NCBI GenBank assembly: GCA_958296175.1 | Contig: OY282448.1 | Span: forward strand, 2,230,127-2,294,126 | From: an uncultured Chloroflexota bacterium | GTDB lineage: Bacteria; Chloroflexota; UBA11872 | Length of the DNA: 64,000 nucleotides | Direction of reading: 5' to 3' | Position numbers and translations under genes: made by a program | In this document: positions 13,510-42,696 of the stretch, in pieces | Layout of the letters: each line of letters starts with the position of its first letter | How positions within the stretch are numbered: the first letter of the stretch is position 1 | Notes under the pieces: generated by a model | Database searches by the model: none | Seen by the model: only the letters and a program-made list of their open reading frames with translations | What the model was told of the DNA's origin: nothing

Positions 13510-13701
13510 TGGCGCGCCTGCGGCGGACACTCACACGATGCTGTCGAGCGGGCGCCGCCCGTCGGCAGGTCGATTGGGTCGGGCGCTCGCCGTCGACCAG
13601 AGCCTGCAACGACGGTCAGACGTCCGTGAAACCGACAATCGTGCGTCCTGCCGTTCCGCGCGCCGAGGCGTCGGCGACTGGTAAGAGCTTTCCACGACGG
13701 C

Positions 13702-14157
13702 CTACCGCCGTTGGGCCAAGCGCTCGGTGTCCGCCTGGCGCAGCGGGCGGTGGGCGTCCAGTGTCACGGTGTCGCTGTGGTCGGGCGGGTAAGGCGGGCT
13801 GGTGATGAAGAGCGCGCGGGCCGGAGCGCCGCCGGCGGCTGTCAGTTGCAGCGTGTGTCCCGGCGGGGTGACCACGGATTCACCCGCGGCCGCCGTGCAT
13901 GCGCGCACCGCGCCCAGGTCGGCGTCATAGGTTGCGGCGCGGATGCGGCCGGCCAGCACGTAGGTCACCTGCTCCAGCGTCAGGTGCGCGTGCACGCCGT
14001 AGATGCGCCCGGGTTCGAGGCTGCCCTCGGCCAGCGCCAGATGCGCGCAGGGGCTGACGTCGATCGGACGCACCACAATCCCATCCTGCGCCGTCACGGG
14101 CGGCCCCGGCGTTCGCGTCCCAACGTGCGCACCGACGGCATCCGTGGTTTCGGTCAA
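13702..14157 (-). CDS. Cupin domain protein
   Basis: 151 aa with a cupin two-His motif (GVHAH...). Overlaps the upstream gene by 4 bp. Confidence 0.55.
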   Translation of the reverse strand: MTETTDAVGAHVGTRTPGPPVTAQDGIVVRPIDVSPCAHLALAEGSLEPGRIYGVHAHLTLEQVTYVLAGRIRAATYDADLGAVRACTAAAGESVVTPPGHTLQLTAAGGAPARALFITSPPYPPDHSDTVTLDAHRPLRQADTERLAQRR

Positions 14158-16013
14158 GGCGTCGGGTCGACTGGCCGCGGGCGGTGGAGGTCCGCTGGGG
14201 TTCCGGTCGATAACGGTCCCCCGAACGCGTCGATGACTTCGTCCGAGTCACGGCCTGGGATTGGTTTTCCCATGGCGTCCTCTATGGCGTCCAGCAGCTT
14301 GACCGCGCGGTCGCGGATGAAGCCGCCAAAGTCGTTGCGGCGCAGCAGCTCGGGTTCGATCCAGTGTGTTGCGAGCACCTCGTCCAGGCGATCTCTGCTG
14401 ATGTTCCCGGTGTTCACCAGCCTGTCGAGATATTGACTCGGAGCGCTGCCGCCGAGCATTCGATTGGTCTCGCTGGTGAGCGGCGCTTTGTTCACCACGC
14501 TATTGGAGGTCGAATAATCCACGCCATTATTCGAACACCAAGCCCGCGGGAAAATGTGATGGATGTCGACAGGCAATGAGAACCCCATGGTGTGCGCAAT
14601 CGGATTCGCATTCTTGAAGTCGTGGCTCCCCTGCTTTACCATGAGGGAAAAGAGGCCCTTGTATGCGGCGCTGTTTCGAGTACTGAGGCCAAGCAGCCGC
14701 GTAGGAGCAAAATTCGCGTCGCGAATAGTACGCGGCTCTTCGTTGCCCTCGGTCCACCCAACGACATCCTGGATGTCCATCGTGTAACGAGTTTCGTTGG
14801 CGCCGCCGTACATCTCGCCCAGTACGCCGCACCAGTACCAGCGGGCGAGCTTCGCGAGGACGTCGTGTGCGTCGAGCTGCTTGTCGAGATAGGCGCAAAT
14901 CGCCGCCAAGGGCACGAGCTGAGTTCCGTACGGCAGGTTTCGCCGGTCGAAGACCCTCTCACGGGTCAGCAACTGCGCGGCGCGTTGAAAACCGTGCTCG
15001 ACGGACGAGGCGTTGTCCTTATACTCATCGAGCGTCAGCCGCAGCACGTCGCGGCGCCGGACGCTGACCGCGCTCGTACTTCCCGGCGCGCGGCTGCGCT
15101 TGTAGCTGGCAAGCAGCGTAACCGCCTGCAAGAAGTCGGTGCTGCTCACTCCGCGCAGCACGTTCTGCTCTGCAATCCGCTCACGCCGTTCTGCCCAGTC
15201 GTCCCGCAGGCGGAAGTTGTCAGCGGCGAAGCTGGCCGTCACGAGCTCGAAGACCGACAAGGTGACGCCGCCCGTGTTCACCTTTTCGAATACCTGGCAG
15301 ACGGCCTCTTTGGGAGTTTCCCTCTTTAACTCAATGACTGGAACTTTGTATTTATTAATCGGAAGCCAGATTTTCGCAAGAAACTGGTCGATGAACTCGA
15401 CTTTTCCAGGATTGAACTTGAAGTACTCTTTGTATCCAGAGTTCCATTGAAAAGCCTCGACAGCGTTGAAGATCATCTCCAGCGGGTACAGTCCACGCTC
15501 ATACTCACGCTCGCGCGTTGTTACGTCGAGTACCACCGTGCGCCCAAAATCGGCCGTGCGCACCTTCGATTCAGGAAGCGAGAGAACCGCTTCTTCCCGG
15601 TCCAGGTCGGGGTCGAGGCATTTGGCCATGTCCAGATAATAATACAGTTTGGTTTCCTGGCCTCGCGTCGTTCGCGTGGGGACAGGGCGGCCGCTCATGA
15701 GCGCGAGAAAAAGCGAGGTCAGCCGCTGTTGGCCGTCGAGAACCAGGCCGTTGGGCGAAGTGAGAGAGTCGAGGTGGACGCCTGCGAACGGCCGCGGCAA
15801 GAAACTGCCGCTCTCCCCGCCAGTTTCCAGCACCATCACGGCGCCGATCGGGTAGGAGAGCGTGACACTGGCGATCAGCGAACGAATGTGCGCATCGTCC
15901 CAGATCCAACTGCGCTGAAAATCGGGCAGCTGGATGGCGCCTTTGCCGATGTCACTCAGGAGTTCCGAGAGCAGCGGCTCGTTTGTCTGGAACGTTCCCG
16001 AGGAGAATGCCAT
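14154..16013 (-). CDS. GmrSD-family type IV (modification-dependent) restriction endonuclease; DUF262 (ParB-like NTPase) + DUF1524 (HNH-like)
   Basis: N-terminal DUF262 hallmark LDGQQRLTSL. C-terminal DUF1524 motif DIHHIFPRAWC followed by N..V. 619 aa. The gene lies in a roughly 58% GC stretch against a roughly 70% background. Confidence 0.8.
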   Translation of the reverse strand: MAFSSGTFQTNEPLLSELLSDIGKGAIQLPDFQRSWIWDDAHIRSLIASVTLSYPIGAVMVLETGGESGSFLPRPFAGVHLDSLTSPNGLVLDGQQRLTSLFLALMSGRPVPTRTTRGQETKLYYYLDMAKCLDPDLDREEAVLSLPESKVRTADFGRTVVLDVTTREREYERGLYPLEMIFNAVEAFQWNSGYKEYFKFNPGKVEFIDQFLAKIWLPINKYKVPVIELKRETPKEAVCQVFEKVNTGGVTLSVFELVTASFAADNFRLRDDWAERRERIAEQNVLRGVSSTDFLQAVTLLASYKRSRAPGSTSAVSVRRRDVLRLTLDEYKDNASSVEHGFQRAAQLLTRERVFDRRNLPYGTQLVPLAAICAYLDKQLDAHDVLAKLARWYWCGVLGEMYGGANETRYTMDIQDVVGWTEGNEEPRTIRDANFAPTRLLGLSTRNSAAYKGLFSLMVKQGSHDFKNANPIAHTMGFSLPVDIHHIFPRAWCSNNGVDYSTSNSVVNKAPLTSETNRMLGGSAPSQYLDRLVNTGNISRDRLDEVLATHWIEPELLRRNDFGGFIRDRAVKLLDAIEDAMGKPIPGRDSDEVIDAFGGPLSTGTPADLHRPRPVDPTP

Positions 16014-19470: not shown

Positions 19471-20229
19471 TCACGCCGCGGCCGTCCGAAACGGCGACAC
19501 CGCCGGACGCGCCGGCGAGGTGGACGACGGGCAAACGTCGTTCAGCGTGCAGCCGTCGCAGTCCGGCCGCCGCGCGTCGCAGACCCGCCGCCCGTGCCAG
19601 ATGACGGCCGTGCCGGCAAAAATCCAGGCGCCGCGGTCCAGGGTGTCCATCAGGTCGCGTTCGATCGTGACCGGGTCCGCCGCGCGCGTCAGCCCCAGCC
19701 GCTGCGAGAGCCGCTTGACGTGCGTATCCACCACCACGCCGCTGGCCACGCCAAAGGCTTCGCCCAGCACCACGTTGGCGCTCTTGCGCGCCACGCCGCG
19801 CAGGCGCAGCAAGTCCTCCATGCGGCGCGGCACCTCGCCGTCGAACTCGTGCACCAGCTGCGCCGCCGTTTCTCGAATGGCGCGCGCCTTGCTGCGGAAG
19901 AAGCCCGTCGGGTGGATCAGCGCTTCCACTTCCAGCTGCGAGGCCGCCGCCAGCGCCTGCGGCGTGGGAAAGCGCCCGAACAAGGCCGGCGTCACCCGGT
20001 TCACCGTCACGTCGGTGGTCTGCGCCGACAAGATCACCGCAATCAGGAACTGAAACGGCGAGCGGTAGTCGAGTTCCGCCGCCGCGTCCGGATACAGCGC
20101 GCGCAGCCGCCGCACGATCTCCGCCGCCCGCGCGCGCCGCGCCGCTTTCGACTCCCGCCAGCGCCGAACCACCAACGCCGGCCGCCCCGCGCGCCCCCGA
20201 GTCCTCCTCCCAGCCATACCCAGCAGCAT
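19471..20229 (-). CDS. nth: Endonuclease III (DNA glycosylase/AP lyase)
   Basis: HhH-GPD motifs: FQFLIAVILSAQTTD, LRLRGVARKSANVVLGEAFG (catalytic Lys), VDTHV. Fe-S cluster C-x6-C-x2-C-x5-C at the C-terminus. The exact start is uncertain. Confidence 0.85.
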   Translation of the reverse strand: MLLGMAGRRTRGRAGRPALVVRRWRESKAARRARAAEIVRRLRALYPDAAAELDYRSPFQFLIAVILSAQTTDVTVNRVTPALFGRFPTPQALAAASQLEVEALIHPTGFFRSKARAIRETAAQLVHEFDGEVPRRMEDLLRLRGVARKSANVVLGEAFGVASGVVVDTHVKRLSQRLGLTRAADPVTIERDLMDTLDRGAWIFAGTAVIWHGRRVCDARRPDCDGCTLNDVCPSSTSPARPAVSPFRTAAA

Positions 20230-20454
20230 ATCCACCCCACCGCGCCGGCGGCCACAAGGCCGAAAGACCGGCATAAGCAGTCAGCGGCCAGGGGCCGAGG
20301 GCGCGGGACGTGCGGCAAGCGCCGCGCTTGCCGCTCCCCCGGCCAAGGACGCCGCCGCGGCCGCAGCGCAGGCGGCCCACGGCCAGCCCACGGCCGGCCC
20401 ACGGGCGGCCCCTGCGCCTATAATCCCAGCGGCCGCCGCGCCCGGACGCCCTCC

Positions 20455-23400
20455 GTGCCCATCGCCAACCTCGACGACGCCTACGAGCTCGACCAAGCCG
20501 TCGGGCGCATCCTGCGCGCGCCCGACCCGCGCCAGCGTGCGGAAGCCGTCCGGCGGCTGTTCGTCGAGGTGCTGGACTTCCATTCGCAGTCCGGCCAGGT
20601 TTCGTTGCGGCCGCCGCCCGCCGGTGCGCAGCTTCCCGCCGCTGCCGAGCGCGTCGCGGTGTTGGACGGCGTGCACGTCTGTTACGTCGCGCTCCAGGCG
20701 CCGGAAAACGACCGCGTGCGCACGGCCGAAGCGTCCGCCGCGGCGCGGCGGCTGGCCGACCAGCTGGGCGACGACCTGCTGCTGGCCGTCTCCAACGCCT
20801 CCGGCCGCCAGCTGCACCTCATCCATCCGCGCGTACAGGGTGCGCGGCCCACGCTGCGCCGTCTGGTGTTCGAACAAGGCCTGCCGCGCCGCACCGCCGT
20901 CCAGCAGGCCGCCAACATCTACGCCGAATACCGCGCGTCCCGCAGCATCCGCGCCGCCCTGGACGCCGCCTTCGACGTCGAGCCGGTCACGCGGCGCTTC
21001 TTCAGCGACTACAAGAAAGTGTTCACCCAGGCCGAACGACTGGTCACCGGCTTCGGCCCCGACCAGGCCGACGACAAGCGCCTGTTCGTGCAGACGCTCT
21101 TCAACCGGCTCATGTTCGTGCACTTCCTCTCGCGCAAAGGCTGGCTGACCTTCCAGGGCAAGAACGAATACGTGCAAGCGCTTTGGGACAGCTACCAGTC
21201 CCGCCGCCCCAGCGAAACCAACTTCTACCGCGACCGTCTGCACCCCCTGTTCTTCTGCGGCCTCAACAACCCGTCGGGCACGGACGTGAACGGTCGCTAC
21301 ATGCGGAAGGTCTACGGCGACGCGCCGTTCCTGAACGGCGGCCTGTTCGAGCAAAGCGCACTGGACCGGCGGCCAGGCGTGCAGGTGCCCGACGAAGCCA
21401 TCGCACCCGTCGTGCAAGCGCGCAGCGGCTTGTTCCAGCGCTTCAACTTCACCGTCATGGAATCCACGCCCTACGACGTGGAAGTGGCCGTGGACCCGGA
21501 AATGCTGGGCAAAGTGTTCGAGGAACTGGTCAACGAACGCCACGCCAGCGGCGCCTACTACACGCCGCGCCCCGTGGTGGCCTTCATGTGCCGCGAGGCG
21601 CTGAAAGGCTTTCTGGAACACCGCGTGGACGAGTTGGACGCTCAGACTGTGGAAGACTTCGTGGACCGGCGCGACCCCTCCCGCGCCACGCTGGCGCAGG
21701 CGATCCAGCTGAGCAGCGCGCTGGACGACGTCACCGTCATCGACCCTGCCTGCGGTTCCGGCGCCTACCTGCTGGGCATGCTGCAGGAACTGCTGGAGCT
21801 GCAAACCACGCTCTACAGCCAGAAGCTGCGCCGCGACGCGCGCACCTTCTACCAGCTGAAACTGCACGTCATCCAGCGCAACCTCTACGGCGTCGACGTC
21901 GACCCGTTCGCCGTCAACATCGCCAAGCTGCGCCTCTGGCTCTCCCTGGCCATCGACTACGACGGCGACAAACCCGAGCCGCTGCCCAACCTGGACTTCA
22001 AGATCGTCTGCGGCGACAGCCTGCTCGGGCCGGAGCCGGTGCTGCACCTCTCGGCAAAGAAGTCGGAACTCGGCGAGTTGAAGGGCAAGTTCATGCTCGC
22101 CACGGCGCAAAAGGAAAAAGACGAGCTGCGCGGGGGCATCGCGGCTGAGCGCGCTCGGGTCGAGCAGGTGCTGGCGGGCGCATCCGCACCCGAAGGCGCG
22201 GTGAACTGGCGCCTGGACTTTGCCGAAGTGTTCGAGAAGCCCGGCAGCTTCGACATCGCCATTGCAAACCCGCCCTACGTGCGGCAGGAAAAGATCGGTC
22301 CCAGCAAAGCAAGGCTCGTTCGGCAATACGCCGGAGCCGTGAACGCCCGCTCGGACCTGTATTGCTATTTCTACGCGCGTGCGCTGCAACTGCTGCGGCG
22401 CGGCGGCCAACACGTCTTTATCTGCTCCAATAGCTGGCTGGACGTTGGATACGGCGCGCGGCTCCAGGATTTCCTGCTCTACAACGCGCACGTTCGCGCC
22501 ATCTACGAAAGCGCGGTGGAACGGCAATTTTCGACCGCCCAAATCAACACCGTCATCAGCGTCATCGAAAAGAACGGTGTCTGCGACGAGAGTCCGACGC
22601 GGTTCGTGTCGCTGCGGGGCGAGTTCGAGCAGGCGATGGCCGACCCGACGCTTCGCCGCCAGATTACCAAGACCCGCCGGGAACTGCTGGACGCCGCAAC
22701 GAGCGGCGTCGACAGCCGAGGACACGCCAAATTCGTGGGCGACAAGTGGGGCGGCAAGTATCTGCGCGCCCCGGACATCTATCACCACATCCTGACAACG
22801 TATAGCGACAAGTTCGTGCGGCTGGGCGATATCGCGACAGTGAGATTTGGTATAAAGACCGGCGCCAATGCGTTTTTCTTTCTCGACGAGGCGCGCATCC
22901 AGCAGTGGAACATCGAAGAAGAGTACCTTGCTCCCGTAATGACCAGCCCCCAAGAGTCCCGCAGCATCCTCGTCGACCCCGACACGCTTCCGAAGAAGCT
23001 CTTTGTGTGCCACAAGGAGAAAGACGAGCTTAGACACACGGGAGCGCTGGCGTACATTCAATGGGGTGAGACGAATGAGTACCACAAGCGGCGCAGCATG
23101 GTTTCGCGAAAGAGATGGTACGATCTGGGAATACGAGACGGGGTATATCTGGCAATGAATTTGTTAGTGCATGCGAACGCAAGAACGTATCTTTATAAAG
23201 AAGCGGTGTTTTGCAGCAACAACTTTCATGTATTTGCTTCAAAGCATAAGAATGCTAGTGTGTGCACATCACTTAATTCCACGCTTTCTCAGCTTAGCAT
23301 CAACGTGGAGTCACGATCCAATTTTGGCGAAGGTGTTCTGGAGATACAAACATATGAAACCGCTAATTTGCGGATTGTAAAGCCTGAACATATTACGACC

Positions 23401-23628
23401 ATAGATGAGTGTCTGTTCACTTCATCGGACCTTGACATTGTAAGCCGAGAGAATGGCGATCCAGCTTGGCAAGTTGACGATGTATCTGCGAATCGTCGCG
23501 CTATAGACGATGTAGTGTTTGACGTGCTTGGCCTGACCCAAGACGAACGTGACGCAGTGTACGAAAGCGTTATCGAACTAATCAGCAACCGCCTCAGCCG
23601 CGCAAGCAGCGTGCATACCACGAGGTGA
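20455..23628 (+). CDS. MmeI/Eco57I-family (COG1002) N6-adenine DNA methyltransferase, about 1057 aa. The N-terminal PD-(D/E)xK catalytic residues appear lost, so it is probably methyltransferase-only, as in DrmMI or PglX. The C-terminal target-recognition part is sharply low in GC.
   Basis: Motifs: helical-domain PFLNGGLFEQ, GAYYTPRPVV, motif I VIDPACGSGAYLLG, motif IV NPPY (IAIANPPYVRQE). GTG start at 20455. The upstream part of ORF 19291..23628 is antisense to nth and the enolase gene and is rejected. GC falls from about 68% to about 40% after roughly 23050. Confidence 0.85.
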   Translation: MPIANLDDAYELDQAVGRILRAPDPRQRAEAVRRLFVEVLDFHSQSGQVSLRPPPAGAQLPAAAERVAVLDGVHVCYVALQAPENDRVRTAEASAAARRLADQLGDDLLLAVSNASGRQLHLIHPRVQGARPTLRRLVFEQGLPRRTAVQQAANIYAEYRASRSIRAALDAAFDVEPVTRRFFSDYKKVFTQAERLVTGFGPDQADDKRLFVQTLFNRLMFVHFLSRKGWLTFQGKNEYVQALWDSYQSRRPSETNFYRDRLHPLFFCGLNNPSGTDVNGRYMRKVYGDAPFLNGGLFEQSALDRRPGVQVPDEAIAPVVQARSGLFQRFNFTVMESTPYDVEVAVDPEMLGKVFEELVNERHASGAYYTPRPVVAFMCREALKGFLEHRVDELDAQTVEDFVDRRDPSRATLAQAIQLSSALDDVTVIDPACGSGAYLLGMLQELLELQTTLYSQKLRRDARTFYQLKLHVIQRNLYGVDVDPFAVNIAKLRLWLSLAIDYDGDKPEPLPNLDFKIVCGDSLLGPEPVLHLSAKKSELGELKGKFMLATAQKEKDELRGGIAAERARVEQVLAGASAPEGAVNWRLDFAEVFEKPGSFDIAIANPPYVRQEKIGPSKARLVRQYAGAVNARSDLYCYFYARALQLLRRGGQHVFICSNSWLDVGYGARLQDFLLYNAHVRAIYESAVERQFSTAQINTVISVIEKNGVCDESPTRFVSLRGEFEQAMADPTLRRQITKTRRELLDAATSGVDSRGHAKFVGDKWGGKYLRAPDIYHHILTTYSDKFVRLGDIATVRFGIKTGANAFFFLDEARIQQWNIEEEYLAPVMTSPQESRSILVDPDTLPKKLFVCHKEKDELRHTGALAYIQWGETNEYHKRRSMVSRKRWYDLGIRDGVYLAMNLLVHANARTYLYKEAVFCSNNFHVFASKHKNASVCTSLNSTLSQLSINVESRSNFGEGVLEIQTYETANLRIVKPEHITTIDECLFTSSDLDIVSRENGDPAWQVDDVSANRRAIDDVVFDVLGLTQDERDAVYESVIELISNRLSRASSVHTTR

Positions 23629-23766
23629 TATATTCCTGGGAGCGTCGAAAAATACAAAGGACTATATGAATCATATCTATGATTTCACGAAGGATCACCC
23701 AACAAAAGCTAGTCCATATATTTTCAGTTTGCCCGGCAGTCGATGAGTGATTTGACTGGCCGAAAT

Positions 23767-24750
23767 TCACATGAGCATTGACATGTTTAGACCTTGCATG
23801 TCTTCCTTGACGGGGACTTCGAGTTTTGTGACAAAGTACCGTGGCGCACTCAATTTTACGCGTTGAATGCGTACGCTGATGCGCACTCGCTGCTTCAACA
23901 GCGCGTTTATCGGCTTTTCCTCGGCAACGGTGCGCTCGACTTTGGCCTGAATCACTTCCCCCTTACCGCCGTCTGGTGATTGGCCCGCTGGCTCGTCAAC
24001 GACAAATTCCGCTAACTGCCGCTTTGGTAAGTAGCCTTGAAAGTATCCGACCAGTGTGATGTGTTCCTCAGGGATTGGTTTCTGACTCAAACGCTTCACG
24101 CTGGCCTGAACTTGGCTCACGTCACGAAATGCAAACACGCCGCCCTTGAATCTCAGGCGGCATGTGGCCTCTTTGGAATGCAGCACGTCAACGAATTTTC
24201 GTATGGCGTTTACCGCGCGTTCGTCGGTTTCATCCCAAATATGAGCCATTGCATCGTCGCTCTCGACCGATGCCTTCAGGATGTCCTGCGTCCGCGCAAT
24301 CGCCGCCTCGACGTGACTCAGCATCGACTCGAACGCCGTCTGTGAGGACGCGCCCTCGAGTTGGAACCCAAATGACCCCCGCACGACGTCCGTAATCATG
24401 AGCCGGTAGTCTTCTCGATTCGGGATGCGGTCGAGTGCGCCCAAATCGGCTGCCGAATGCTGGCTTGCCCCGACGGCGGCGACGGCGTTTTCAAACGTCC
24501 GGACGGCGTCCCCGCCAAATCCAGCGTCGATGCCTTGTCGGCCCGCGACGGGTTTCCCCTCGAAGCTAAGAAGCGCTTCTGTGGGTTGGGCGGGAAGTAC
24601 CGCAGGGTAGTCGAGGAGTTCCGCCTCGACCTCGGCAAGCCGCTGTGTCAGCGTGTGTTGCCGGATCGCACTTTCCGGTGCCGTGCGGTCGAGCATGTCT
24701 TTCAGCGCGGCTTGTTCGGAAAGCAGAAAACTATGTTCGCGCCTGCTCAT
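23767..24750 (-). CDS. Hypothetical protein (327 aa), second gene of a two-gene operon inside the defence locus
   Basis: No motif recognised. Its start ATG overlaps the upstream stop (TAATG), and a strong RBS AGGAGGACAGTA lies in the upstream gene's 3' end. Moderately reduced GC. Confidence 0.5.
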   Translation of the reverse strand: MSRREHSFLLSEQAALKDMLDRTAPESAIRQHTLTQRLAEVEAELLDYPAVLPAQPTEALLSFEGKPVAGRQGIDAGFGGDAVRTFENAVAAVGASQHSAADLGALDRIPNREDYRLMITDVVRGSFGFQLEGASSQTAFESMLSHVEAAIARTQDILKASVESDDAMAHIWDETDERAVNAIRKFVDVLHSKEATCRLRFKGGVFAFRDVSQVQASVKRLSQKPIPEEHITLVGYFQGYLPKRQLAEFVVDEPAGQSPDGGKGEVIQAKVERTVAEEKPINALLKQRVRISVRIQRVKLSAPRYFVTKLEVPVKEDMQGLNMSMLM

Positions 24751-25367
24751 TACTGTCCTCCTTCACGGTCGAGTTTGTCGAGTTCGGACCTGGCTGCGTG
24801 ATCTTCACCCTCAGCCAGATCGATTCGCACGTAGCCTTTCCACACGCCGTCGCGCGTGTGCGACCACAGGCTATACCAATACGTCAGATCATCCACTAAC
24901 TCATCGATCTTTGCCGGATTCATAACGACGTGGTACGCGTGTAAGCCGTGGATCTTACGAATGGTGTTTGGCTCGAATAAATCTGGATATTGTTCGAGCA
25001 CATCCATTTCCTGTTGATCGTCTGTCACGTGGATGAATGTAATCACGTCAATGTCCCCAGGTGGCCGGCCTTCCGTCTGCTCGACGTCTTCGACGAAGCT
25101 TCCGTCGACCCACTGAAAGCCCCGGGTCAGGCCGGCCGCGTGCAGCCTTTCTCGGTATTCCAGTAGTCCCTGCAGCAGCTTCCGTCTGTTGGGCGTGCGT
25201 CCGAATTTTGCAACCGTGTCGAGAAGGGACGCGCGGTACGGAGATCGACGCCGAGCTGTGGGATTCTTCGGGTCGACGGCGGGAAGCAACCCCGTAAGGC
25301 GCCACGCGGGAATCTGGCTGACGATGATTTCGCTTCTGAACCGATGGCGGCGCACGCCTGTGTGCAT
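24750..25367 (-). CDS. Hypothetical protein (205 aa) with a possible minimal nucleotidyltransferase motif (GS-x16-DIDV)
   Basis: Motif WVDGSFVEDVEQTEGRPPGDIDVITF resembles a pol-beta-type NTase hG[GS]...DxD. First gene of the two-gene operon, divergent from the PLD-SNF2 gene. Confidence 0.45.
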   Translation of the reverse strand: MHTGVRRHRFRSEIIVSQIPAWRLTGLLPAVDPKNPTARRRSPYRASLLDTVAKFGRTPNRRKLLQGLLEYRERLHAAGLTRGFQWVDGSFVEDVEQTEGRPPGDIDVITFIHVTDDQQEMDVLEQYPDLFEPNTIRKIHGLHAYHVVMNPAKIDELVDDLTYWYSLWSHTRDGVWKGYVRIDLAEGEDHAARSELDKLDREGGQ

Positions 25368-25414
25368 TTCGAGTCTAGCATCGCGTCCGCTTCAGACTGC
25401 TCGACCACGACCGA

Positions 25415-25526
25415 TTGTTTGACCGTTGTTTGATTGGACAGGCCAAAAACTCCCGAAAACGGTACTGGTCGATGGTCGGTGAACCTGTTAGGCGGTTCTG
25501 CGGTTGTTTGACCGTTGTTTGATTGG
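25415..25526. promoter_or_regulatory. Divergent promoter region with two perfect 23-bp direct repeats TTGTTTGACCGTTGTTTGATTGG (25415-25437 and 25504-25526). Each repeat contains a tandem TTGTTTGA, giving four sites in all; a putative operator array.
   Basis: Exact repeats read directly in the 302-bp intergenic region between the divergently transcribed hypothetical operon and the PLD-SNF2 gene. Confidence 0.4.
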
Positions 25527-25668
25527 CGGGCGGGTTCGCTGCTCGTGAACGCGTGCTACGCTCGCGTTACAGTATTGACTTGGCGCGGCGCTCGATGAAT
25601 ATGCACGGGTTCGGGTCTACGCCAACGCGCGCGCGCGTGCGGGGCGCGGCGTTCGCCAGGTCGGCGTC

Positions 25669-28600
25669 GTGAACATCTTGCACGCCGGGACCGAACCGCC
25701 GCTGCTGGAGCGGCTGCAGGAGATGCTGGGCAGTTCCGCGCGGGCGGACATTGCCGTGGGCTACTTCTTCATGAGCGGGTTTGCGCAGGTGGCGGACGCC
25801 CTGGCCGGCCTGCAGCGGGTGCGCATTCTGGTTGGCCGCACGGACCGGCGCGTGTTGGACGATGTGGCGCGGGGGTTGCAGCAGGCGCAGGCGCTGAGCG
25901 CGCGGCTGGAGGCCGACGAGCTTACGCCGCGCGGCCAGCGGCCGGCCATCGTGCGAAACGCCGCGGCCAGCATTGCGGAAGGCGTGGCGCTGCTGCCGCA
26001 GGACGACGGCTCGCAAGCCGCGGTGATGCGCCTGCGGGACATGATTGCCGCGGGCCAGGCGGAGGTGCGCGCCTATCCGCGCGGCCCGCTGCACGCCAAG
26101 GCCTATCTGTGCTGGTACGCCAACCACGCGGAACCGGGCGCGGCCGTGGTGGGGTCGTCCAACTTTACGCTGGCGGGGTTTACGGGCAACACCGAGCTCA
26201 ACGTGCGCGTGACCGGGGACGCCGAGATGGCCGAACTGCGGAGGTGGTTCGAAGACTTGTGGCGCGATTCGCAGGACGTCGGCGCGGCGCTGCTGACCGA
26301 ACTGAACCGCTCGTGGGCGCTGGCGCGCACGCCGCCCTACCACGTGTATCTGAAGGCGCTGTACGAGCTGTATTTCACGCCCGTCGGAGACCCCGACCTC
26401 ACGCTGGCGCAGCCCGCGGAGGAGCTGGCCAATTTCCAACTGGACGCGGTGCGGCGCGGGCTGGCCATGATCGAGACGCACGGCGGCTGTTACATCGGCG
26501 ACGTGGTGGGGCTGGGCAAGACCTACGTGGGGGCCGAGCTGCTGCGCCAACTGCGCCAGAGTTATCCGAACGACGGCCCGCCGCTGATCATCTGTCCGGC
26601 TGGATTGCGGCCCATGTGGCGGCATTTCAACGAACGTTTCGGCCTGGGCGCGGAGGTCATTTCGCACAGCAGCATCCGTCCCGCGCCCGCTCCGCAGTTC
26701 GACGAAGCGCTTGGCCGGTTCGTCGACCCCGAGCCGGACGGTCGCAGCGGCGTGGTGCTGCACGACGAATATCCGAACCGCGGGCCGGTGCTGGTGGACG
26801 AGGCGCACAGCTTCCGCAACGTCAACCAGCGCTCGACCGGCTTGCAGTCCTATCTGGACGCCGGCGACCACAAGGTGGTCTTGCTCAGCGCCACGCCGCA
26901 GAACCTGGGTCCGATGGACATTTATCGACAACTGCGGCTGTTTCTGGACGATCTGGACCACGGCCTGAACATCGAGCCGCTCAATTTGGAGGAGTATTTC
27001 CACAACGCGCGGCGCTGGATGGATTACCGCACGGCGGACGAGAATTACAAGACCGAATACGCGGCCTGGCGTGAGGGCGGATCGCGCGGCGCGCCGCCCA
27101 TGGACAAACCCAAGCCGCCTCCCGTGCCCCGCGCCGACGTGCAGCAGGTGCTGGCGCCGCTGTTCATCCGCCGCCGCCGCCGCGACATCCGCGAGCTGTA
27201 CGGCGACACGGCCACCGTGGACGGCGCCCCGGTGCGTTTCCCGGATCCGGTGCTGCGCAACGTGGAGTATCGGTTGGACAAGGTGTACGCCAAGGCCGGA
27301 TCACTGGAGGACTTGCTTGCGCGCTTGAAAGAACATCGAGCGGCCAGATACCGCGCTACCAAGTATTTGCTGGCTGAGGCCAAGGACAACGACGAGTACC
27401 GGGACTTGTTCAGAGCGGGGGACCGCATTCCGCGGCTGATGCGCGGGCTGCTGCTCAAGCGGCTGGAATCCAGCATCGAGGCGTTTCGCTCTACCTTGAA
27501 GTCGCTGCTGCGCAGCAACCGCAACTTTCGCACGGCGCTGGAGGCCGGCTACGTGCCGGTTGGCGCCACGGCGACGCGTCTGCTGGCCGGGGAGATCTTC
27601 GACGCCGACGAGGCGTTGCACGCTCTCCATGCGGAGGAAAGACGGCGGCAAAACCAGGACGTTCGGCGCCTGCTGGATGATCTTCCGCATGCCGAGCGGT
27701 ACGAGCGCGCGCGCCGCCTGCTCGACGACGACGCCGGCGGGCGTCAGCCCCAGGCGGCCAAGCGTTCCACGCTGGTGCATTCCGTGGCGGACTTCGACGC
27801 CGATCGGTGGCTGGCGGACGTGGACGCGGATTTCGAGGTTCTGCGCGGCATTGCGGACCGGGTCGAAGGCATCGGGCCGGGCGACGACGACAAATTGCGC
27901 ACGCTGCGCCGCTTTTTGCAGCAGCCGGAGGCGGCGGCGGACAAGGTGCTGATCTTTTCCGAAGCCGAGACGACGATCGACTACCTGTATCGAGAGTTGA
28001 ACCCGGACGAACGAGACCCGACCTTCGCCCGCTTGACGGGTGCGACGGGCAACGCGGCGGAGGTCATCCGACGCTTTGCGCCGCGCTCGAACCTTGGACG
28101 GAACGCTCCGCGCCCGGCGGTCGAAATCCGCGTGCTGCTGGCCACCGACGTCGTGTCCGAGGGCCAGAACCTGCAAGACTGCGCCCGCGTGCTGAATTAT
28201 GACCTGCACTGGAATCCGGTGCGGCTGATCCAGCGCTTCGGTCGCGTCGACCGCATCGGGTCCGAGCACTCGGTCATCCACTTGCACAACATGTGGCCCG
28301 ACACCGCGGTGGACGCCGAGCTGGAGCTGACGGAGCGGCTCGGCAACCGCATTCAGACGTTCCACGACTCGATTGGGCTGGACAGCAAGCTGCTGTCGGA
28401 CACGGAGCGCCTGAACGCGGCGGACATGTACCGCATCTACGCCGAAGGGCGCCTGCCGGACGAGGACGACGAGCTGGACGAGGTGGCGGTCAATCAGCGC
28501 GCCGTGGCGCTCTTGCAGCGGATTCAGCGCGGCGACCCCGAACTGTGGCGCACGGTGACGACCCTGCCCGACGGGGTTCGCTCGGCGCTGAGCGGCGGCG

Positions 28601-29265
28601 GCGAGCCCGCGGACGACGACGGCGCCGCGGTTCGCCTGCAGCAGGTGCTGGAAGTTCCCGGCATGCAGATGCCGCTGGTGTCGCCGGACGAGTCGGATGC
28701 GGAACTCTCGCCCTTCGACCCTCCGCGGCCCGGCGAGACGCTGGTGCTGCTGAGCGCGGGCAAGGTCAAGGGCTGCTACGCCGCGGCGGACGGACGGGAC
28801 CCGCGGCAGATCAGCCCGGCCCAGTTCGCGCGCGCGGCTGAATGCGCCCCGGATACGCCGGGTCGGCCGCTGCCGTCCACCACCAACCAGCGCGTGATGA
28901 GCGCTTTCGAGACGTTCCGGGCCGACGTCCAGCAGCGGCTGGGCCGCGCCCGGCGTCCGCGCGATACGCAGACGCGCCGCTATGTGTCCCGCGGTCTCCG
29001 AAACGCCAGGAACGATCTCGAAGCGTCGCCGGAGGACGCGCAACGGATCGACGTGCTGCAGCGCGTGTTCTACGCCGACCTGCCGCCGCGGGTGGAAGAC
29101 GCCCTGGCTGATATCCGGCGGTTGGGGTTGCAGGGGGAGGCGTTAGTGCGGCGTCTGGAAGCGCTGCGCGAGTTTCACCGACTCAATCCCCCCGACGCTT
29201 CCGTCGAGCCGGCGCGCCCCGCAGCGCAGGTCATCCGCATCGTCTGCTCCGACGGCCTGGTCTAA
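25669..29265 (+). CDS. Fusion protein: N-terminal phospholipase-D-family (single HKD) nuclease domain + SNF2/RAD54-family helicase (SNF2_N + helicase_C), 1198 aa
   Basis: PLD HKD motif HAKAYLCW...GSSNFT. SNF2 motifs: I GDVVGLGKTYVG, II VLVDEAHSFRN (DEAH), III LLSATPQN, V LLATDVVSEGQNLQ, VI QRFGRVDRIG. GTG start at 25669. The antisense ORFs 25567..27003 and 27301..29043 are rejected. Confidence 0.85.
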   Translation: MNILHAGTEPPLLERLQEMLGSSARADIAVGYFFMSGFAQVADALAGLQRVRILVGRTDRRVLDDVARGLQQAQALSARLEADELTPRGQRPAIVRNAAASIAEGVALLPQDDGSQAAVMRLRDMIAAGQAEVRAYPRGPLHAKAYLCWYANHAEPGAAVVGSSNFTLAGFTGNTELNVRVTGDAEMAELRRWFEDLWRDSQDVGAALLTELNRSWALARTPPYHVYLKALYELYFTPVGDPDLTLAQPAEELANFQLDAVRRGLAMIETHGGCYIGDVVGLGKTYVGAELLRQLRQSYPNDGPPLIICPAGLRPMWRHFNERFGLGAEVISHSSIRPAPAPQFDEALGRFVDPEPDGRSGVVLHDEYPNRGPVLVDEAHSFRNVNQRSTGLQSYLDAGDHKVVLLSATPQNLGPMDIYRQLRLFLDDLDHGLNIEPLNLEEYFHNARRWMDYRTADENYKTEYAAWREGGSRGAPPMDKPKPPPVPRADVQQVLAPLFIRRRRRDIRELYGDTATVDGAPVRFPDPVLRNVEYRLDKVYAKAGSLEDLLARLKEHRAARYRATKYLLAEAKDNDEYRDLFRAGDRIPRLMRGLLLKRLESSIEAFRSTLKSLLRSNRNFRTALEAGYVPVGATATRLLAGEIFDADEALHALHAEERRRQNQDVRRLLDDLPHAERYERARRLLDDDAGGRQPQAAKRSTLVHSVADFDADRWLADVDADFEVLRGIADRVEGIGPGDDDKLRTLRRFLQQPEAAADKVLIFSEAETTIDYLYRELNPDERDPTFARLTGATGNAAEVIRRFAPRSNLGRNAPRPAVEIRVLLATDVVSEGQNLQDCARVLNYDLHWNPVRLIQRFGRVDRIGSEHSVIHLHNMWPDTAVDAELELTERLGNRIQTFHDSIGLDSKLLSDTERLNAADMYRIYAEGRLPDEDDELDEVAVNQRAVALLQRIQRGDPELWRTVTTLPDGVRSALSGGGEPADDDGAAVRLQQVLEVPGMQMPLVSPDESDAELSPFDPPRPGETLVLLSAGKVKGCYAAADGRDPRQISPAQFARAAECAPDTPGRPLPSTTNQRVMSAFETFRADVQQRLGRARRPRDTQTRRYVSRGLRNARNDLEASPEDAQRIDVLQRVFYADLPPRVEDALADIRRLGLQGEALVRRLEALREFHRLNPPDASVEPARPAAQVIRIVCSDGLV

Positions 29266-29423: not shown

Positions 29424-31352
29424 ATGGGGGACGGGGGATGGCTAGACTGGATGCGAAGGGGGCGTGACGTTGGTGGGGCGTTGGGTGTGAATCGGCGGAC
29501 GTTGTTGGGTGCTGGGATTGGGGCGGCGGCGGCTGCGGCGCCGGCGGCGCTGGCGGGGACGCTGCTCGTTGGGCGGTCGTCTGCGTTGCCGCGCGGCGTG
29601 AGCGTGGGCGGTGTCGACGTGGGCGGGTTGACGGCGGACGAGGCGTTGGGGCGGCTGCAGGCCCGCTGGGGCGCGTTTCTGGCCGGCCCGGCCGAGTTTC
29701 AGTTGGGCGGGCGTTCCTGGCGGCCGGCGGCCCAGGACATTGGCGTGCGCGCGGACTTCCAGGCGTCCTTGCGCGCGGTGGTGGTGGCGCAGCCGGCGGG
29801 CGGGCTGCTGGATCTGCTGACGGGCGAGGCGTCGGCGCCGCCCGCGGCACCGCCCGTGATCGCCTACGACCGCGGCACCGCGCGGCGATTCCTGGAGGCA
29901 TTGGGGGCGGGATTCGACCAGCCGGCCACCGACGCGGGGTTGCGCATGCGGGGCGACGGGCGCCTGGAGCTTTCGCCCGGCCAGCCGGGGCGCGTGGTGG
30001 ACGTGGAGCAGGCGCTGCGCGACCTGGAGGCGGGCTTGTCGCGCGCCGCGCCCGGGCACGTGGTGCATCTGCGGTTCCGCGAGGATCGGCCCGCGGTGTC
30101 CACCGAGGCCGCCGAGGCCGCCGCCGCAGCGGCGCGGCGCGTGGTTGGCCAGCCGATCTGGCTGATGCGCGGGAACCGCGGCTGGGTGATAGAGCCAGAG
30201 CATCTGCGCAACGCGCTGGTGATCGACGCCAGCGGCCGCGGCATTGCCGTCGAGATCGAGTTCACCCGCTTCAACGACCTCTTCCACACTATCGAGGACA
30301 CGCTGACGGCCGAGCCTGTCGAAGGCGTGTTCGAAATGAACGAGCGCCAGGATCGCGTGACGGCTTTCAAGCCTGGCAATCCCGGGCAGCGCCTGGACCG
30401 CGCGCAGCTGGAACGCCGCATCCTGGCCGCGGCGCAGCGCGAGGATCAGCGGCGGGTCGACGTGCCGCTCGTCATCTTGAACAAGGAATACGACACCGCG
30501 GCCAACCCCATGGGCATTCGGGATCTGCTGGCCACGGGGTCGTCGGTGTACAAAGGCTCGGCGGACTACCGCGACCACAACATTGCCAACGGGGCGCGCA
30601 AGCTGGACGGCGCGATCGTGCGCCCCGGCGAGACGTTTTCGTTCAACGAGCGCGTGGGCGCGTTCACGCTGGCGCAGGGCTGGGTGGCGGGCAGCGTCAT
30701 CGTGGAAGACCGCACCGAGCAGGGTATCGGCGGCGGCATCTGCCAGGTGTCCACCACGCTGTTTCGGGCCGCGATGGCCGCCGGGCTGCCCATCGAAGAG
30801 CGCTGGCCGCACCTTTACCGCGTGCGGTATTACGAGATGGGGAAGTTCCCGATCGGGTACGACGCCACCATCTTCTCGCCCGGCCCCGACTTGAAGTTCA
30901 CCAACAACTACCAACACCCCATCATGCTGCGCGCGCGGCTCGACCGCCGCCTGTCGACGCTGGACTTCGAAATCTGGGGCGTGAGCGACGGGCGCGAGGT
31001 AACGCTGTCCGAACCGCGCCTGTGGGACTGGGTGGAGCCGCCGCCGGACGAGGCGGTGGTGGACTCGGAGGAAGACCCGGACTACGAAAAGCAGATCGAG
31101 TTTGCCAAGGACGGCGTGAACGCCGAGATTCGGCGCACGATCGCGCGCGCCGACGGCACGCAAACCAGCAGCACGTTTCGATCCACGTATACGGCCTGGC
31201 CCAACCGCTACATCGTGGGCATCGACCAGGCCAAAGAGCGGTTTCCAACCTCGTTCAACACGTGGGTCGACAAAAACCCTGACGAAGCCGCCCGCTGGGG
31301 CGTTACGCGCGTGCCGGGGGCGCCTTCCGACCCCAGCGCGCCGTCGGGCTGA
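29424..31352 (+). CDS. VanW family protein (secreted; Tat-like signal)
   Basis: Tat-like signal RRTLLGAGIGAAAAAA. VanW domain signature GGGICQVSTTLF and a YD...G region. 642 aa. Confidence 0.75.
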   Translation: MGDGGWLDWMRRGRDVGGALGVNRRTLLGAGIGAAAAAAPAALAGTLLVGRSSALPRGVSVGGVDVGGLTADEALGRLQARWGAFLAGPAEFQLGGRSWRPAAQDIGVRADFQASLRAVVVAQPAGGLLDLLTGEASAPPAAPPVIAYDRGTARRFLEALGAGFDQPATDAGLRMRGDGRLELSPGQPGRVVDVEQALRDLEAGLSRAAPGHVVHLRFREDRPAVSTEAAEAAAAAARRVVGQPIWLMRGNRGWVIEPEHLRNALVIDASGRGIAVEIEFTRFNDLFHTIEDTLTAEPVEGVFEMNERQDRVTAFKPGNPGQRLDRAQLERRILAAAQREDQRRVDVPLVILNKEYDTAANPMGIRDLLATGSSVYKGSADYRDHNIANGARKLDGAIVRPGETFSFNERVGAFTLAQGWVAGSVIVEDRTEQGIGGGICQVSTTLFRAAMAAGLPIEERWPHLYRVRYYEMGKFPIGYDATIFSPGPDLKFTNNYQHPIMLRARLDRRLSTLDFEIWGVSDGREVTLSEPRLWDWVEPPPDEAVVDSEEDPDYEKQIEFAKDGVNAEIRRTIARADGTQTSSTFRSTYTAWPNRYIVGIDQAKERFPTSFNTWVDKNPDEAARWGVTRVPGAPSDPSAPSG

Positions 31353-42500: not shown

Positions 42501-42696
42501 TGGCCGCGTAGGTCAGCGTGTCCATGTCGGCGTCGGTGAAGTAGGCGGCGACGTCCACGGTGGCGGCGCTGCCGCCGCCGACCAGCGCCTGGGCGGGGAT
42601 GGTTCCCACAGCCGTCGGCGCGGCGGCGAAGGCACGGCTCAGACCGAGAACTGCAAGGAGCGTAAGCAGCAGCAGCGCCGGTACCGCACGGCGCAT
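39508..42696 (-). CDS. Large secreted leucine-rich-repeat protein (about 15 plant-type 24-residue LRRs) with Ig/cadherin-like and Pro/Thr-linker regions and a C-terminal domain of unknown function
   Basis: Signal peptide MRRAVPALLLLTLLAVLGLSRAFA. Repeats follow the pattern LxxLxxLxLxxNQLSGxIPxELGNLSN. Linker TPTPTPSPTPTPAPTP. The alternative 1142-aa ORF 37946..41374 is rejected. Confidence 0.75.
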   Translation of the reverse strand: MRRAVPALLLLTLLAVLGLSRAFAAAPTAVGTIPAQALVGGGSAATVDVAAYFTDADMDTLTYAATSGDTDVVTIGVSGSTVTLTPAGTGSATVTVTASDASDSVDQAMAVTVTHGCAASNPTASASGAHANVARDCETLLDSKDALRGTATTLNWAVGTAMTGWTGVTVDSTKGVTRLFLRNKSLTGAAPPALSGLSELTQLWLDNNQLSGTIPVALANLSKLTNLHLDRNQFDGTIPKELGNLSNLRHLHLARNQLTGTIPKELGDLSNLGNLQLFSNQLSGGIPKELGSLANLTSLGLSGNQLSGAIPAELGNLSSLRAIAVQDNALSGSIPKQLDSLSSLTNLQLHNNQLTGSIPAELGSLSSLQILFLYNNNLSGQIPSQLGNLSNLLRLYLYDNNLSGPIPSRLGNLSNLQRLYLYDNDLSGSIPSQLGNLSNLQWLYLHHNQLSGPIPSQLGNLTRLYALFLNHNQLSGSIPAELGNLSRLHPSYPLSLQCNRLSGVVPTQLDNLPNTPVDVQVWLQGNPVTTPLDASLTSRVRLTGAARSGHLPAASWCGPPAFAPAAAEITVMGTAAAGEDLGDPFVATDPDNQPLAGTQTIAYALSGPDAAAFTRDTATGYLQPVTVLSVGAPADADGDNRYQVTVSASDGVTPANNGGEASIEVTVLVVQGAASPRATATSAKHPRLAVALSGDAGPVAVGGRIGYTFTLRNSGNVPLTGVFWRSPELGVARRDVGSGALAPGAEAIVTTGLTVTAEHLPGPLQVTFYGDSDQTDDPSAVHLTTLAAAAAAAVAVEPTPTPTPSPTPTPAPTPALLPAWTPVVERVRHSVPDAHLAHNIPDLRVDTPDGRASLCGFLAHYDATGGLPCWGHAISEVFVERPGVLSQYFQRGVIDCRPQGDGWVIERRLVWDELGGGLAGAPDLGVEPGLVSEQPGALLGPWGNRVSNYAVDGTWTGFRDFFDMAGGVEFFGYPKTEARTDAHPQAELRLPGAAAGFVRQYFQAGVLEYHPGDRGQPVKLALLGDAVRDRRYPDETWRTLPPFAPAAPLAPGQTYHLSLPRP
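41060..42150. repeat. Tandem array of about 72-bp units encoding the LRR modules
   Basis: Periodic DNA repeats visible (e.g. recurring ...gattgccaagt/ctcgacag... units), matching the 24-aa protein periodicity. Confidence 0.7.

Follow-up and report, generated by a model that had tools for sequence, protein, structure and literature searches.

A conserved methyltransferase and PLD(HKD)-SNF2 gene pair in Chloroflexota as a candidate two-component restriction-modification system

In a stretch of 64,000 nucleotides from an uncultured Chloroflexota bacterium (contig OY282448.1 of assembly GCA_958296175.1, positions 2,230,127 to 2,294,126 of the forward strand; hereafter the window), a gene for a large N6-adenine DNA methyltransferase (MTase) is followed on the same strand by a gene in which an HKD nuclease domain of the PLD type is fused to an SNF2-type ATPase (PLD-SNF2), with two smaller genes, g2 and g3, in between. 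Comparison of related loci supports the view that MTase and PLD-SNF2 are a conserved functional pair, with a linkage that is strong, not absolute, and the reading we favour, and consider rather probable, is that they form a two-component ATP-dependent restriction-modification (R-M) system, in which g2 and g3 are independent cargo. The products of all four genes are identical to gene calls on a public contig of 3.0 Mb, and the two genes of the pair are as follows.

20455-23628, + strand: MTase, a large gamma-class N6-adenine DNA methyltransferase of 1057 amino acids (Pfam), the predicted modification and specificity subunit
25669-29265, + strand: PLD(HKD)-SNF2 fusion of 1198 amino acids (Pfam, PADLOC), the predicted ATP-dependent translocase and nuclease, and thus the restriction subunit

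Both had been described in an initial annotation of this DNA, as an Eco57I/MmeI-family MTase of roughly 1057 amino acids and a PLD(HKD)-SNF2 fusion of 1198, and Pfam confirms them, with SNF2-rel_dom slightly under its cut-off in the latter.

The gene pair and its conservation in Chloroflexota

A scan for PLD-SNF2 with one genome per species gave 340 relatives, and the best 80 loci were compared. These best 80 of 340 all lie in metagenome-assembled genomes (MAGs) of Chloroflexota or Dehalococcoidia and align at full length with 57-71% identity. A homologous MTase is found at 10 kb or less from PLD-SNF2 in 70 of the 80 loci, 68 times upstream on the same strand and twice divergently, and the proportion is 70/77 when only loci with enough upstream sequence are counted, three of the ten exceptions lacking that sequence. 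The two genes overlap by 4 nucleotides (nt) in L049 and are 7 bp apart in L076, and the widest gap is 6.5 kb; the cargo found in the gap of related loci includes VapB-like and PIN proteins, DUF4365 with a partner, AAA_15/AAA_21 ATPases and tyrosine recombinases. Clustering of the open reading frames (ORFs) of the 80 loci yielded no third conserved gene, and the genes flanking the locus in the window recur in 0/80 related loci; since the flanking genes are not conserved, MTase and PLD-SNF2 move as a unit. Conservation of neighbours had been put forward in the initial annotation as a check on a four-gene architecture: the outer two genes pass it through their linkage, and g2 and g3, on the opposite strand, absent from all 80 loci and found elsewhere as an autonomous pair, do not. 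Five MAG assemblies carry two PLD-SNF2 copies on the same contig (L020/L022, L035/L052, L055/L056, L075/L080 and L034/L066), and in one Dehalococcoidia genome the pair co-occurs unlinked, with each gene alone amid housekeeping genes (L043 and L093).

The MTase matches the Pfam families Eco57I (2.3e-33), MmeI_Mtase, N6_Mtase and M_Eco57I_C, and its gamma-class N6-adenine core (motif I, NPPY) is followed by a C-terminal target-recognition domain (TRD), as MmeI/Type IIG membership requires. Its parts are arranged in this way.

20455-20889, + strand: N-terminal domain, residues 1-145, with a restriction endonuclease (REase)-like fold without the canonical catalytic motif
20890-21489, + strand: helical spacer domain, residues 146-345
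21742-21762, + strand: motif I DPACGSG, residues 430-436, invariant among 20 homologues
22267-22278, + strand: motif IV NPPY, residues 605-608, invariant among 20 homologues
22615-23628, + strand: target-recognition region, residues 721-1057, hypervariable, with a C-terminal half of low GC

The best PADLOC models for this protein are those named 'REase_MTase_IIG' (2.3e-79), and the alignments of the Type IIG hidden Markov models (HMMs) begin only at about residue 165; the PADLOC DrmMI model covers a partial stretch and scores weaker than the Type IIG models (1.1e-31), and the NCBIfam PglX models reach 60-75 bits against cut-offs of 400-900. For residues 1-345 the AlphaFold model is confident (predicted local distance difference test score, pLDDT, 90), and structure comparison reveals the REase-like fold in the modelled N-domain. 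Among 39 aligned homologues the invariant residues between positions 1 and 150 are R28, D41, A68, A96, P125, L134, R136, R146 and T147, and an acidic-x-Lys motif (D/E-x-K) is conserved nowhere in the domain; the first 180 residues have zero Pfam matches even at E<=1, and thus no nuclease model, and Pfam and the homologue alignment together gave neither an MmeI_N match nor a D-x9-ExK motif. The catalytic residues of MmeI, taken as reference for the comparison of catalytic positions, are D70...E80-x-K82, and in the MTases that are paired with PLD-SNF2 in Synechocystis, Pelobacter and Anabaena (see below) the place of the catalytic Lys, judged by eye, is taken by Thr, Ser or a hydrophobic residue. 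Likewise, HVO_A0079 of Haloferax volcanii has no similarity where the nuclease region is expected (PMC5867850). That the MTase has no recognisable active nuclease, as had been noted earlier from the sequence, is therefore borne out by the missing D/E-x-K motif and nuclease match, and its being nuclease-dead is well supported but not proven; the N-domain is proposed to serve as a docking or coupling module.

PLD-SNF2 matches the Pfam families PLDc_2, RE_NgoFVII (residues 136-200, 24.8 bits against a cut-off of 23.8) and Helicase_C, and the landmarks of the protein are listed here.

25732-26262, + strand: single HKD nuclease domain, residues 22-198 (PLDc_2, RE_NgoFVII)
26092-26100, + strand: H142/K144, the sole HxK motif in the protein
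26152-26163, + strand: GSSN, after the HxK motif
26509-28260, + strand: SNF2-type ATPase core of superfamily 2 (SF2), its motif residues invariant or nearly so
26509-26523, + strand: Walker A, GLGKT
26797-26808, + strand: DEAH motif
26887-26898, + strand: SATP motif
28231-28260, + strand: motif VI, QRFGRVDRIG
28366-29262, + strand: C-terminal region, residues 900-1198, conserved within Chloroflexota

H142, K144, S163, S164 and N165 are invariant among the PLD-SNF2 homologues and, since there is a single HxK motif, one HKD site can only be assembled by dimerisation, as in Nuc, BfiI and MtsD. With all motifs intact and conserved, MTase and PLD-SNF2 both appear to be catalytically competent. The last 300 residues of PLD-SNF2 gave a poor structure model and no informative fold match, and no domain for reading sequence, methylation or modified bases was identified in the protein by Pfam and fold comparison. 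A PDB sequence search returned generic SNF2 or DEAD proteins only, with RapA, CHD1L and SWR1 as the closest and SauUSI not among the matches. The NCBIfam RapA models match below their cut-offs, as do DrmD (NF038317; 138.6 bits, cut-off 610) and NF038318 (78.6 bits, cut-off 950), and both PADLOC PLD_Helicase (3.3e-25) and NCBIfam NF042964 (121 bits, cut-off 1100) cover only residues 717-911, in the C-lobe of the helicase. The top PADLOC model, C3a139 'HKD+Snf2' (8.9e-50, residues 15-898), originates in a list of type III CRISPR accessory and neighbour clusters (Shah 2018, PMC6546367), and it was rejected as a system name, its source being a list of CRISPR neighbours and not a defined system.

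The two proteins differ in how they vary. From 54 complete locus pairs and the window, the mean pairwise identity is 0.69 for PLD-SNF2 and, within the MTase, 0.55 for the N-domain, 0.63 for the helical domain, 0.57 for the catalytic core and 0.28 for the TRD. The Spearman correlation with PLD-SNF2 identity is 0.75 for the N-domain, 0.57 for the helical domain, 0.40 for the core and 0.06 for the TRD, a pattern for which co-evolution of the N-domain with PLD-SNF2 would account, but equally two stable flanks around a recombining middle. The tblastn matches to the MTase from related loci mostly end near residue 700. In locus L007 (6436-8033) the MTase is followed by part of its own 3' (TRD) end in inverted orientation, with a tyrosine recombinase gene at 8183-9151; the inverted arms measure 177 and 73 nt and are 71% identical, and an inverted partial TRD copy together with a tyrosine recombinase is present also in L001, L015, L035, L054, L070 and L075; on the Lactococcus cremoris plasmid pJM1F an inverted TaqI-like specificity cassette stands beside an Mpi-family invertase (L095:8763-9554). 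These inverted cassettes look like TRD-switching shufflons, and programmed inversions in such loci have been shown by Milman et al. (PMC9881135).

Relatives in other phyla and relation to known systems

The pair is found well beyond Chloroflexota. Distant PLD-SNF2 homologues occur on plasmids, with 27-33% identity across the PLD and SNF2 parts, and in 9/9 annotated plasmid loci that were inspected the homologue adjoins, in either gene order, a large DNA methyltransferase homologous to the window MTase.

Anabaena: plasmid pair
Rhodococcus: pair on a 17.7-kb plasmid
Halorussus: plasmid pair
Synechocystis, pSYSX: VapBC between the genes
Thermococcus: AbiEii-type toxin between the genes
Pelobacter: genes abut
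Deinococcus: DUF262 between the genes
Haloferax volcanii, pHV4 (L094:3625-10629): plasmid pair
Lactococcus cremoris, pJM1F: reversed gene order

On plasmids the PLD module and the MTase core were searched for separately, and the two tables were intersected by hand; about 30 of the 60 listed plasmid matches of the PLD module have an MTase match within about 6 kb, with further pairs in Thermus, Allomeiothermus, Parabacteroides, Prevotella, Nostoc, Calothrix and more haloarchaea. The PLD module itself forms 661 clusters at 50% identity (E<=1e-10), and their full-length members are almost all 1040-1230 amino acids long, with the module at the N-terminus.

The MTase of the Synechocystis pair, Slr6050 (1100 amino acids), is M.Ssp6803IV, to which the motif GA(m6A)GGC has been tentatively assigned; its knockout never segregated, and the adjacent helicase is not discussed (PMC6105098). 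The PADLOC model PDLC03628 'REase_MTase_IIG' matches Slr6050 at full length with 2662 bits, being essentially Slr6050 itself, so that automatic tools probably call such MTases stand-alone Type IIG enzymes and miss the partner. HVO_A0079 of H. volcanii is listed in REBASE as Type IIG, no methylation by it was detected, and its deletion was possible (PMC5867850); its gene overlaps that of a PLD-domain partner of 777 amino acids, which is followed by an IS4 transposase, with further insertion sequence (IS) elements flanking the locus, and the apparent truncation of the partner may explain why HVO_A0079 is deletable. On the Lactococcus plasmid pLd8, orf34, filed in REBASE as Type IIG, was described as having methylase and recognition domains but lacking one for restriction, and the orf33 product, with PLD, SNF2 and helicase-C domains, was proposed to carry the restriction activity (van Mastrigt 2018, PMC6098607). 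Table 3 of Milman 2023 includes two loci in which a Type II R-M coding sequence stands beside one for a PLD(cd09178)+SNF protein (PMC9881135).

The window pair has the same domain content and the same proposed division of labour as orf33/orf34 of pLd8, namely a nuclease-less Eco57I-family MTase adjoining an SNF2 protein with an N-terminal HKD domain. On pJM1F, whose arrangement is pLd8-like, homologues of both window genes are detectable, but distant (about 27-32% identity), and the gene order is reversed, with the inverted TRD cassette and its invertase, whereas in the window DUF6932 cargo lies between the genes. The window locus is thus a distant member of a family that had already been noticed and rationalised in passing. 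In the literature searched we found no name, census or experiment for the MTase and PLD-SNF2 pair. The earlier suggestion of an undescribed architecture nevertheless goes too far, as the two genes appear in PMC6098607 and PMC9881135, and REBASE-derived HMMs class MTases of this kind as Type IIG.

Membership of DISARM, BREX, MANTIS, Type ISP, CglI/NgoAVII and MmeI was considered and rejected in each case, a defining feature being missing. Like DISARM class 1, the locus combines a helicase of the SNF2 type and a nuclease of the PLD type with a large N6-adenine MTase that is MmeI/Eco57I-like, and the DrmD and DrmMI models match in part; it differs in the absence of DrmA/DrmB (DUF1998) and in the fusion of PLD to SNF2. 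The initial annotation had likewise listed the DISARM parts without drmA/drmB and noted that the BREX core genes pglZ/brxC are lacking, and both statements agree with the Pfam/PADLOC scan, in which DrmA/DrmB, PglZ, BrxC and DUF499 were absent from window ORFs of at least 500 amino acids and from the neighbours at 10-36 kb. Conserved genes of the DrmA/DrmB type are likewise missing from the 80 related loci, and BREX membership fails because PglZ and BrxC were not found in the window. MANTIS (also Gao_RL or BREX-related type 2, with the DUF499 ATPase MtsA, MtsB, the MTase MtsC and the PLD-SF2 protein MtsD) resembles the pair in its hemimethylating self-marking and in a dimeric effector whose N-terminal HKD nuclease is fused to an SF2 ATPase. 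Here, by contrast, neither a DUF499 AAA+ loader (MtsA) nor MtsB, a small type-2-specific DUF3780 protein (PMC12839542), had a Pfam match in the window or is conserved in the 80 loci. The window MTase is moreover of the Eco57I/PglX type, whereas the DUF499 systems use the COG1743/BrxXI type, and of PLD-SNF2 the PLD-helicase models PLD_Helicase and NF042964 cover the helicase C-lobe only.

In Type ISP enzymes such as LlaGI and LlaBIII, nuclease, SF2 translocase, gamma-class N6-adenine MTase and TRD act on asymmetric sites that are methylated singly, and Type ISP would be the best mechanistic analogy for the window pair. The difference is that Type ISP is one polypeptide, in which the PD-(D/E)xK nuclease is of the Mrr type and the helicase is not of the SNF2 type, whereas the window has two proteins with HKD and SNF2 domains, and Pfam gave no Mrr_cat, ISP_coupler or Type_ISP_C match at the window locus. 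CglI and NgoAVII, too, bring together a PLD nuclease of the NgoFVII type and an SF2 ATPase; there the PLD is fused to a B3 DNA-binding domain, and a DEAD-family helicase and a methyltransferase are encoded by separate genes. The window locus, unlike these, has no B3 domain, an SNF2-type helicase fused to the nuclease and an N6-adenine MTase, and without a B3 domain its specificity presumably comes from the MTase. Finally, the MmeI family (Type IIL/IIG) has in common with the window MTase the helical spacer, the gamma-class MTase, the C-terminal TRD and the REase-like N-terminal fold, and by analogy modification of a single strand is expected; the window MTase differs in having no MmeI-type nuclease, with a separate nuclease gene conserved alongside.

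Proposed mechanism and alternative explanations

As stated above, a two-component R-M system is the reading that we prefer. In such a system the MTase would read a short asymmetric site and methylate one adenine on one strand as the mark of self, and on unmodified DNA it would recruit or license PLD-SNF2, its degenerate N-domain being the likeliest point of contact with the helicase-nuclease. PLD-SNF2 would dimerise into a single HKD site, translocate along double-stranded DNA with ATP and cleave. If one strand only is marked, a pair of unmodified sites, inverted relative to each other, is probably required for cleavage, comparable to Type III, Type ISP and MANTIS, hence the tolerance of hemimethylated DNA. 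The slot between the core genes would capture small defence and toxin-antitoxin (TA) modules. The broader claim, that such pairs are a distinct and widespread two-protein R-M class in which a nuclease-dead MTase licenses a dimeric HKD-SNF2 protein via the N-domain, seems to us evenly poised.

The point of greatest doubt is whether PLD-SNF2 needs the MTase to find its targets. The combination of a conserved nuclease with hypervariable TRDs argues that it does, and it is here that a DISARM-like logic departs, in which both genes cooperate, the MTase only protects, and PLD-SNF2 finds unmethylated DNA without the MTase TRD. The DISARM nuclease reportedly stays active without its methylase, and a nuclease active without the MTase would account for the unsegregated slr6050 knockout; the partial DrmD and DrmMI matches of PLD-SNF2 and MTase point the same way. 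Nevertheless, a nuclease at 0.69 identity serving TRDs at 0.28, with TRD shufflons, requires that the MTase specificity be read, no sequence- or methyl-reading domain was identified in PLD-SNF2, and the DISARM sensor DrmAB is absent, so that this logic is unlikely. More unlikely still is that the two genes are merely co-localised, the MTase being a self-contained Type IIG enzyme and PLD-SNF2 an autonomous Type IV enzyme like SauUSI or one like HmaA. The 'REase_MTase_IIG' models, the REase-like fold of the N-domain, and the existence of solitary PLD-SNF2 copies and of one unlinked pair would suit it, and there are precedents in SauUSI, an autonomous PLD-helicase enzyme, and in HmaA, which by itself defends against T4 (PMC11232893). 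Against this stand the adjacency in 70/77 loci, overlapping stop and start codons included, a pairing that, in one gene order or the other, extends from Chloroflexota to Halobacteria and Lactococcus, the lack in the MTase of a conserved D/E-x-K and of a nuclease match in Pfam, and, for PLD-SNF2, a SauUSI relationship undetected by sequence and no modified-base reader domain.

Two further explanations have much less in their favour. A housekeeping pair, made of a RapA-like SNF2 remodeller or repair factor and a regulatory or orphan methyltransferase, would agree with the unusual conservation of PLD-SNF2 in Chloroflexota (57-72%), with its GC content of 0.685, near the window average of 0.695, and with RapA as its closest PDB sequence match; yet the genomic location varies and the flanks are not conserved, some genomes hold several copies, the pair is present on small plasmids of other phyla, and the intact HKD motif, hypervariable TRD and embedded TA and abortive-infection (Abi) cargo point to defence, which makes it very improbable. 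A four-gene system with g2 and g3 as integral parts has hardly any credence left: the genes are contiguous, g2 and g3 overlap by 1 nt and g3 resembles the PADLOC candidate component PDC-M63A, but g2 and g3 lie on the opposite strand with a GC content of 0.57, below that of the core genes, are missing from all 80 related loci, pair with each other in unrelated plasmid and defence-island contexts without MTase or helicase, and have their slot occupied by other modules elsewhere. Comparative genomics, through this absence and independence, led us to reject it.

The two-component reading itself has points that weigh against it. We infer restriction, the methylation motif and the physical interaction of the pair. 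Seven loci with adequate flanks have PLD-SNF2 without an MTase at 10 kb or less, and in the Dehalococcoidia genome mentioned above PLD-SNF2 (L043; OY729417.1 2455072-2478602) and MTase (L093; 1750372-1771521) are about 700 kb apart, so tight linkage is not obligatory; a harmless solitary nuclease is, for its part, a prediction of the targeting-dependent model. The missing canonical motif does not prove the MTase N-domain inactive, and the correlation of identities, instead of showing co-evolution, could come simply from the two conserved flanks of a recombination hotspot. For HVO_A0079 no methylation was detected, and its partner there is apparently truncated by an IS element. A targeting role, moreover, predicts that an MTase knockout is viable, and the non-segregating slr6050 fits the DISARM-like logic somewhat better, though it may also reflect polyploid segregation.

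If the two-component reading is true, the pair would be the smallest known methylation-based, motor-driven restriction system on a PglX/MmeI-type methyltransferase, achieving MANTIS function without an AAA+ loader and DISARM class 1 function without DrmAB. It would offer a simple model for a question common to BREX, DISARM and MANTIS, namely how an MTase passes unmodified sites to a helicase-nuclease while sparing hemimethylated self. Many REBASE-derived 'Type IIG' entries would turn out to be the modification and specificity (M/S) subunit of a two-component enzyme, correcting a systematic annotation error, and the 'essential' slr6050 as well as the nuclease-less 'Type IIG' proteins of Haloferax and Lactococcus could find an explanation. 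The family would thus matter more than the window copy, which is one more instance, with tractable homologues available on Lactococcus and Synechocystis plasmids.

The middle genes and the surroundings of the locus

The remaining features in and around the locus are given below.

14154-16013, - strand: 619-amino-acid GmrSD_N/DUF262 protein, 4.4 kb upstream, in a low-GC patch of 0.59-0.63
19471-20274, - strand: HhH-GPD repair gene, left flank
23767-24750, - strand: g2, a 327-amino-acid protein without a known family, partner of DUF6932, cargo
24750-25367, - strand: g3, a DUF6932 protein of 205 amino acids (Pfam 3.8e-29), cargo
25415-25437 and 25504-25526, + strand: two exact 23-nt repeats, TTGTTTGACCGTTGTTTGATTGG, in the divergent region between g3 and PLD-SNF2
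29424-31352, + strand: VanW-like gene, right flank

The initial annotation had treated g2 and g3 as two coupled ORFs of unknown function. Their sizes hold, and with 1 nt (24750) shared between them coupling is plausible; g3, however, belongs to DUF6932. Both are convergent with MTase and divergent from PLD-SNF2, and with g2 and g3 on the opposite strand the four genes are not a single operon. In g3 there is a pol-beta nucleotidyltransferase-like signature GS...DxD (G89-S90...D105-I-D107), the PADLOC candidate model PDC-M63A matches it at 2.7e-11, and no PDB sequence relatives were found. For g2, Pfam, NCBIfam, PADLOC and PDB gave zero matches, and the protein is rare, with 8 clusters only among 5.8 billion proteins. 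In 5/5 retrieved contexts (L081-L085) a g2-like gene comes immediately after a DUF6932 gene and overlaps it by 4 nt, in plasmid-like or defence-island surroundings without MTase and PLD-SNF2; the neighbours there include ParA/RepA, HEPN-MNT, Cas3, a Type ISP enzyme and an anti-Pycsar-like gene, the true Type ISP gene being in L084. Neither g2 nor g3 was found in the related Chloroflexota loci (0/80), and because they also recur elsewhere as a pair of their own, they are best described by comparative sequence data as an autonomous module inserted in a variable cargo slot, not a core component. The DUF6932 and g2 pair is consistent with a small mobile defence module of a toxin-antitoxin-like or abortive-infection-like kind, and cargo embedded in the related system Hma is documented (PMC11232893).

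The window has a GC content of about 70% (average 0.695). Along MTase it declines, with 0.69 at the N-terminus and 0.46 in the final 177 codons, the TRD going from 0.60 to 0.46; it is 0.40 in the intergenic spacer, 0.57 in g2/g3 and 0.685 in PLD-SNF2. The GC drop at 23.1-23.7 kb, which the initial annotation had taken as a sign of foreignness, is real (0.42-0.48), but what is compositionally foreign is a recently exchanged TRD segment together with the cargo, not the whole system. The GmrSD-like type IV gene that it had placed 4.4 kb upstream is there as well, with the DUF262 half only, the DUF1524/HNH half not being detected; its best PADLOC matches are the candidate families PDC-M55C and HEC-05. 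The defence island built on these two points is not borne out: between the GmrSD-like gene and the locus lie four genes, whose domains are of the transaldolase, glyoxalase, enolase-superfamily and HhH-GPD repair kinds, the flanks are HhH-GPD and VanW genes, and the Pfam/PADLOC scan gave no defence-gene matches in the rest of the window, leaving the case for a defence-island setting weak.

Each copy of the 23-nt repeat (TTGTTTGACCGTTGTTTGATTGG) is a tandem of TTGTTTGA, and zero such repeats are expected by chance. Among the related loci L018 has the motif too, placed 42-53 nt before PLD-SNF2 begins, while it is seen in 0 of the other 78, and the repeats may be operator sites, as their position and sequence suggest. 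A promoter and terminator scan of the locus did no better than on shuffled sequence, no direct or inverted flanking repeats convincingly mark an insertion, and the nearest tRNA, 2.2 kb downstream of the locus, is not obviously an attachment site. Further away, a 974-amino-acid ORF at 10606-13530 (- strand) has coding-like GC at third codon positions (0.87) and no Pfam/PADLOC match, in a region with AT skew of up to 0.35, and a gene at 39508-42696 (- strand) encodes a 1062-amino-acid protein with leucine-rich repeats, DUF7507 and a cadherin-like domain, overlapping a place where GC drops locally to 0.60 and GC skew shows a spike (41-42 kb).

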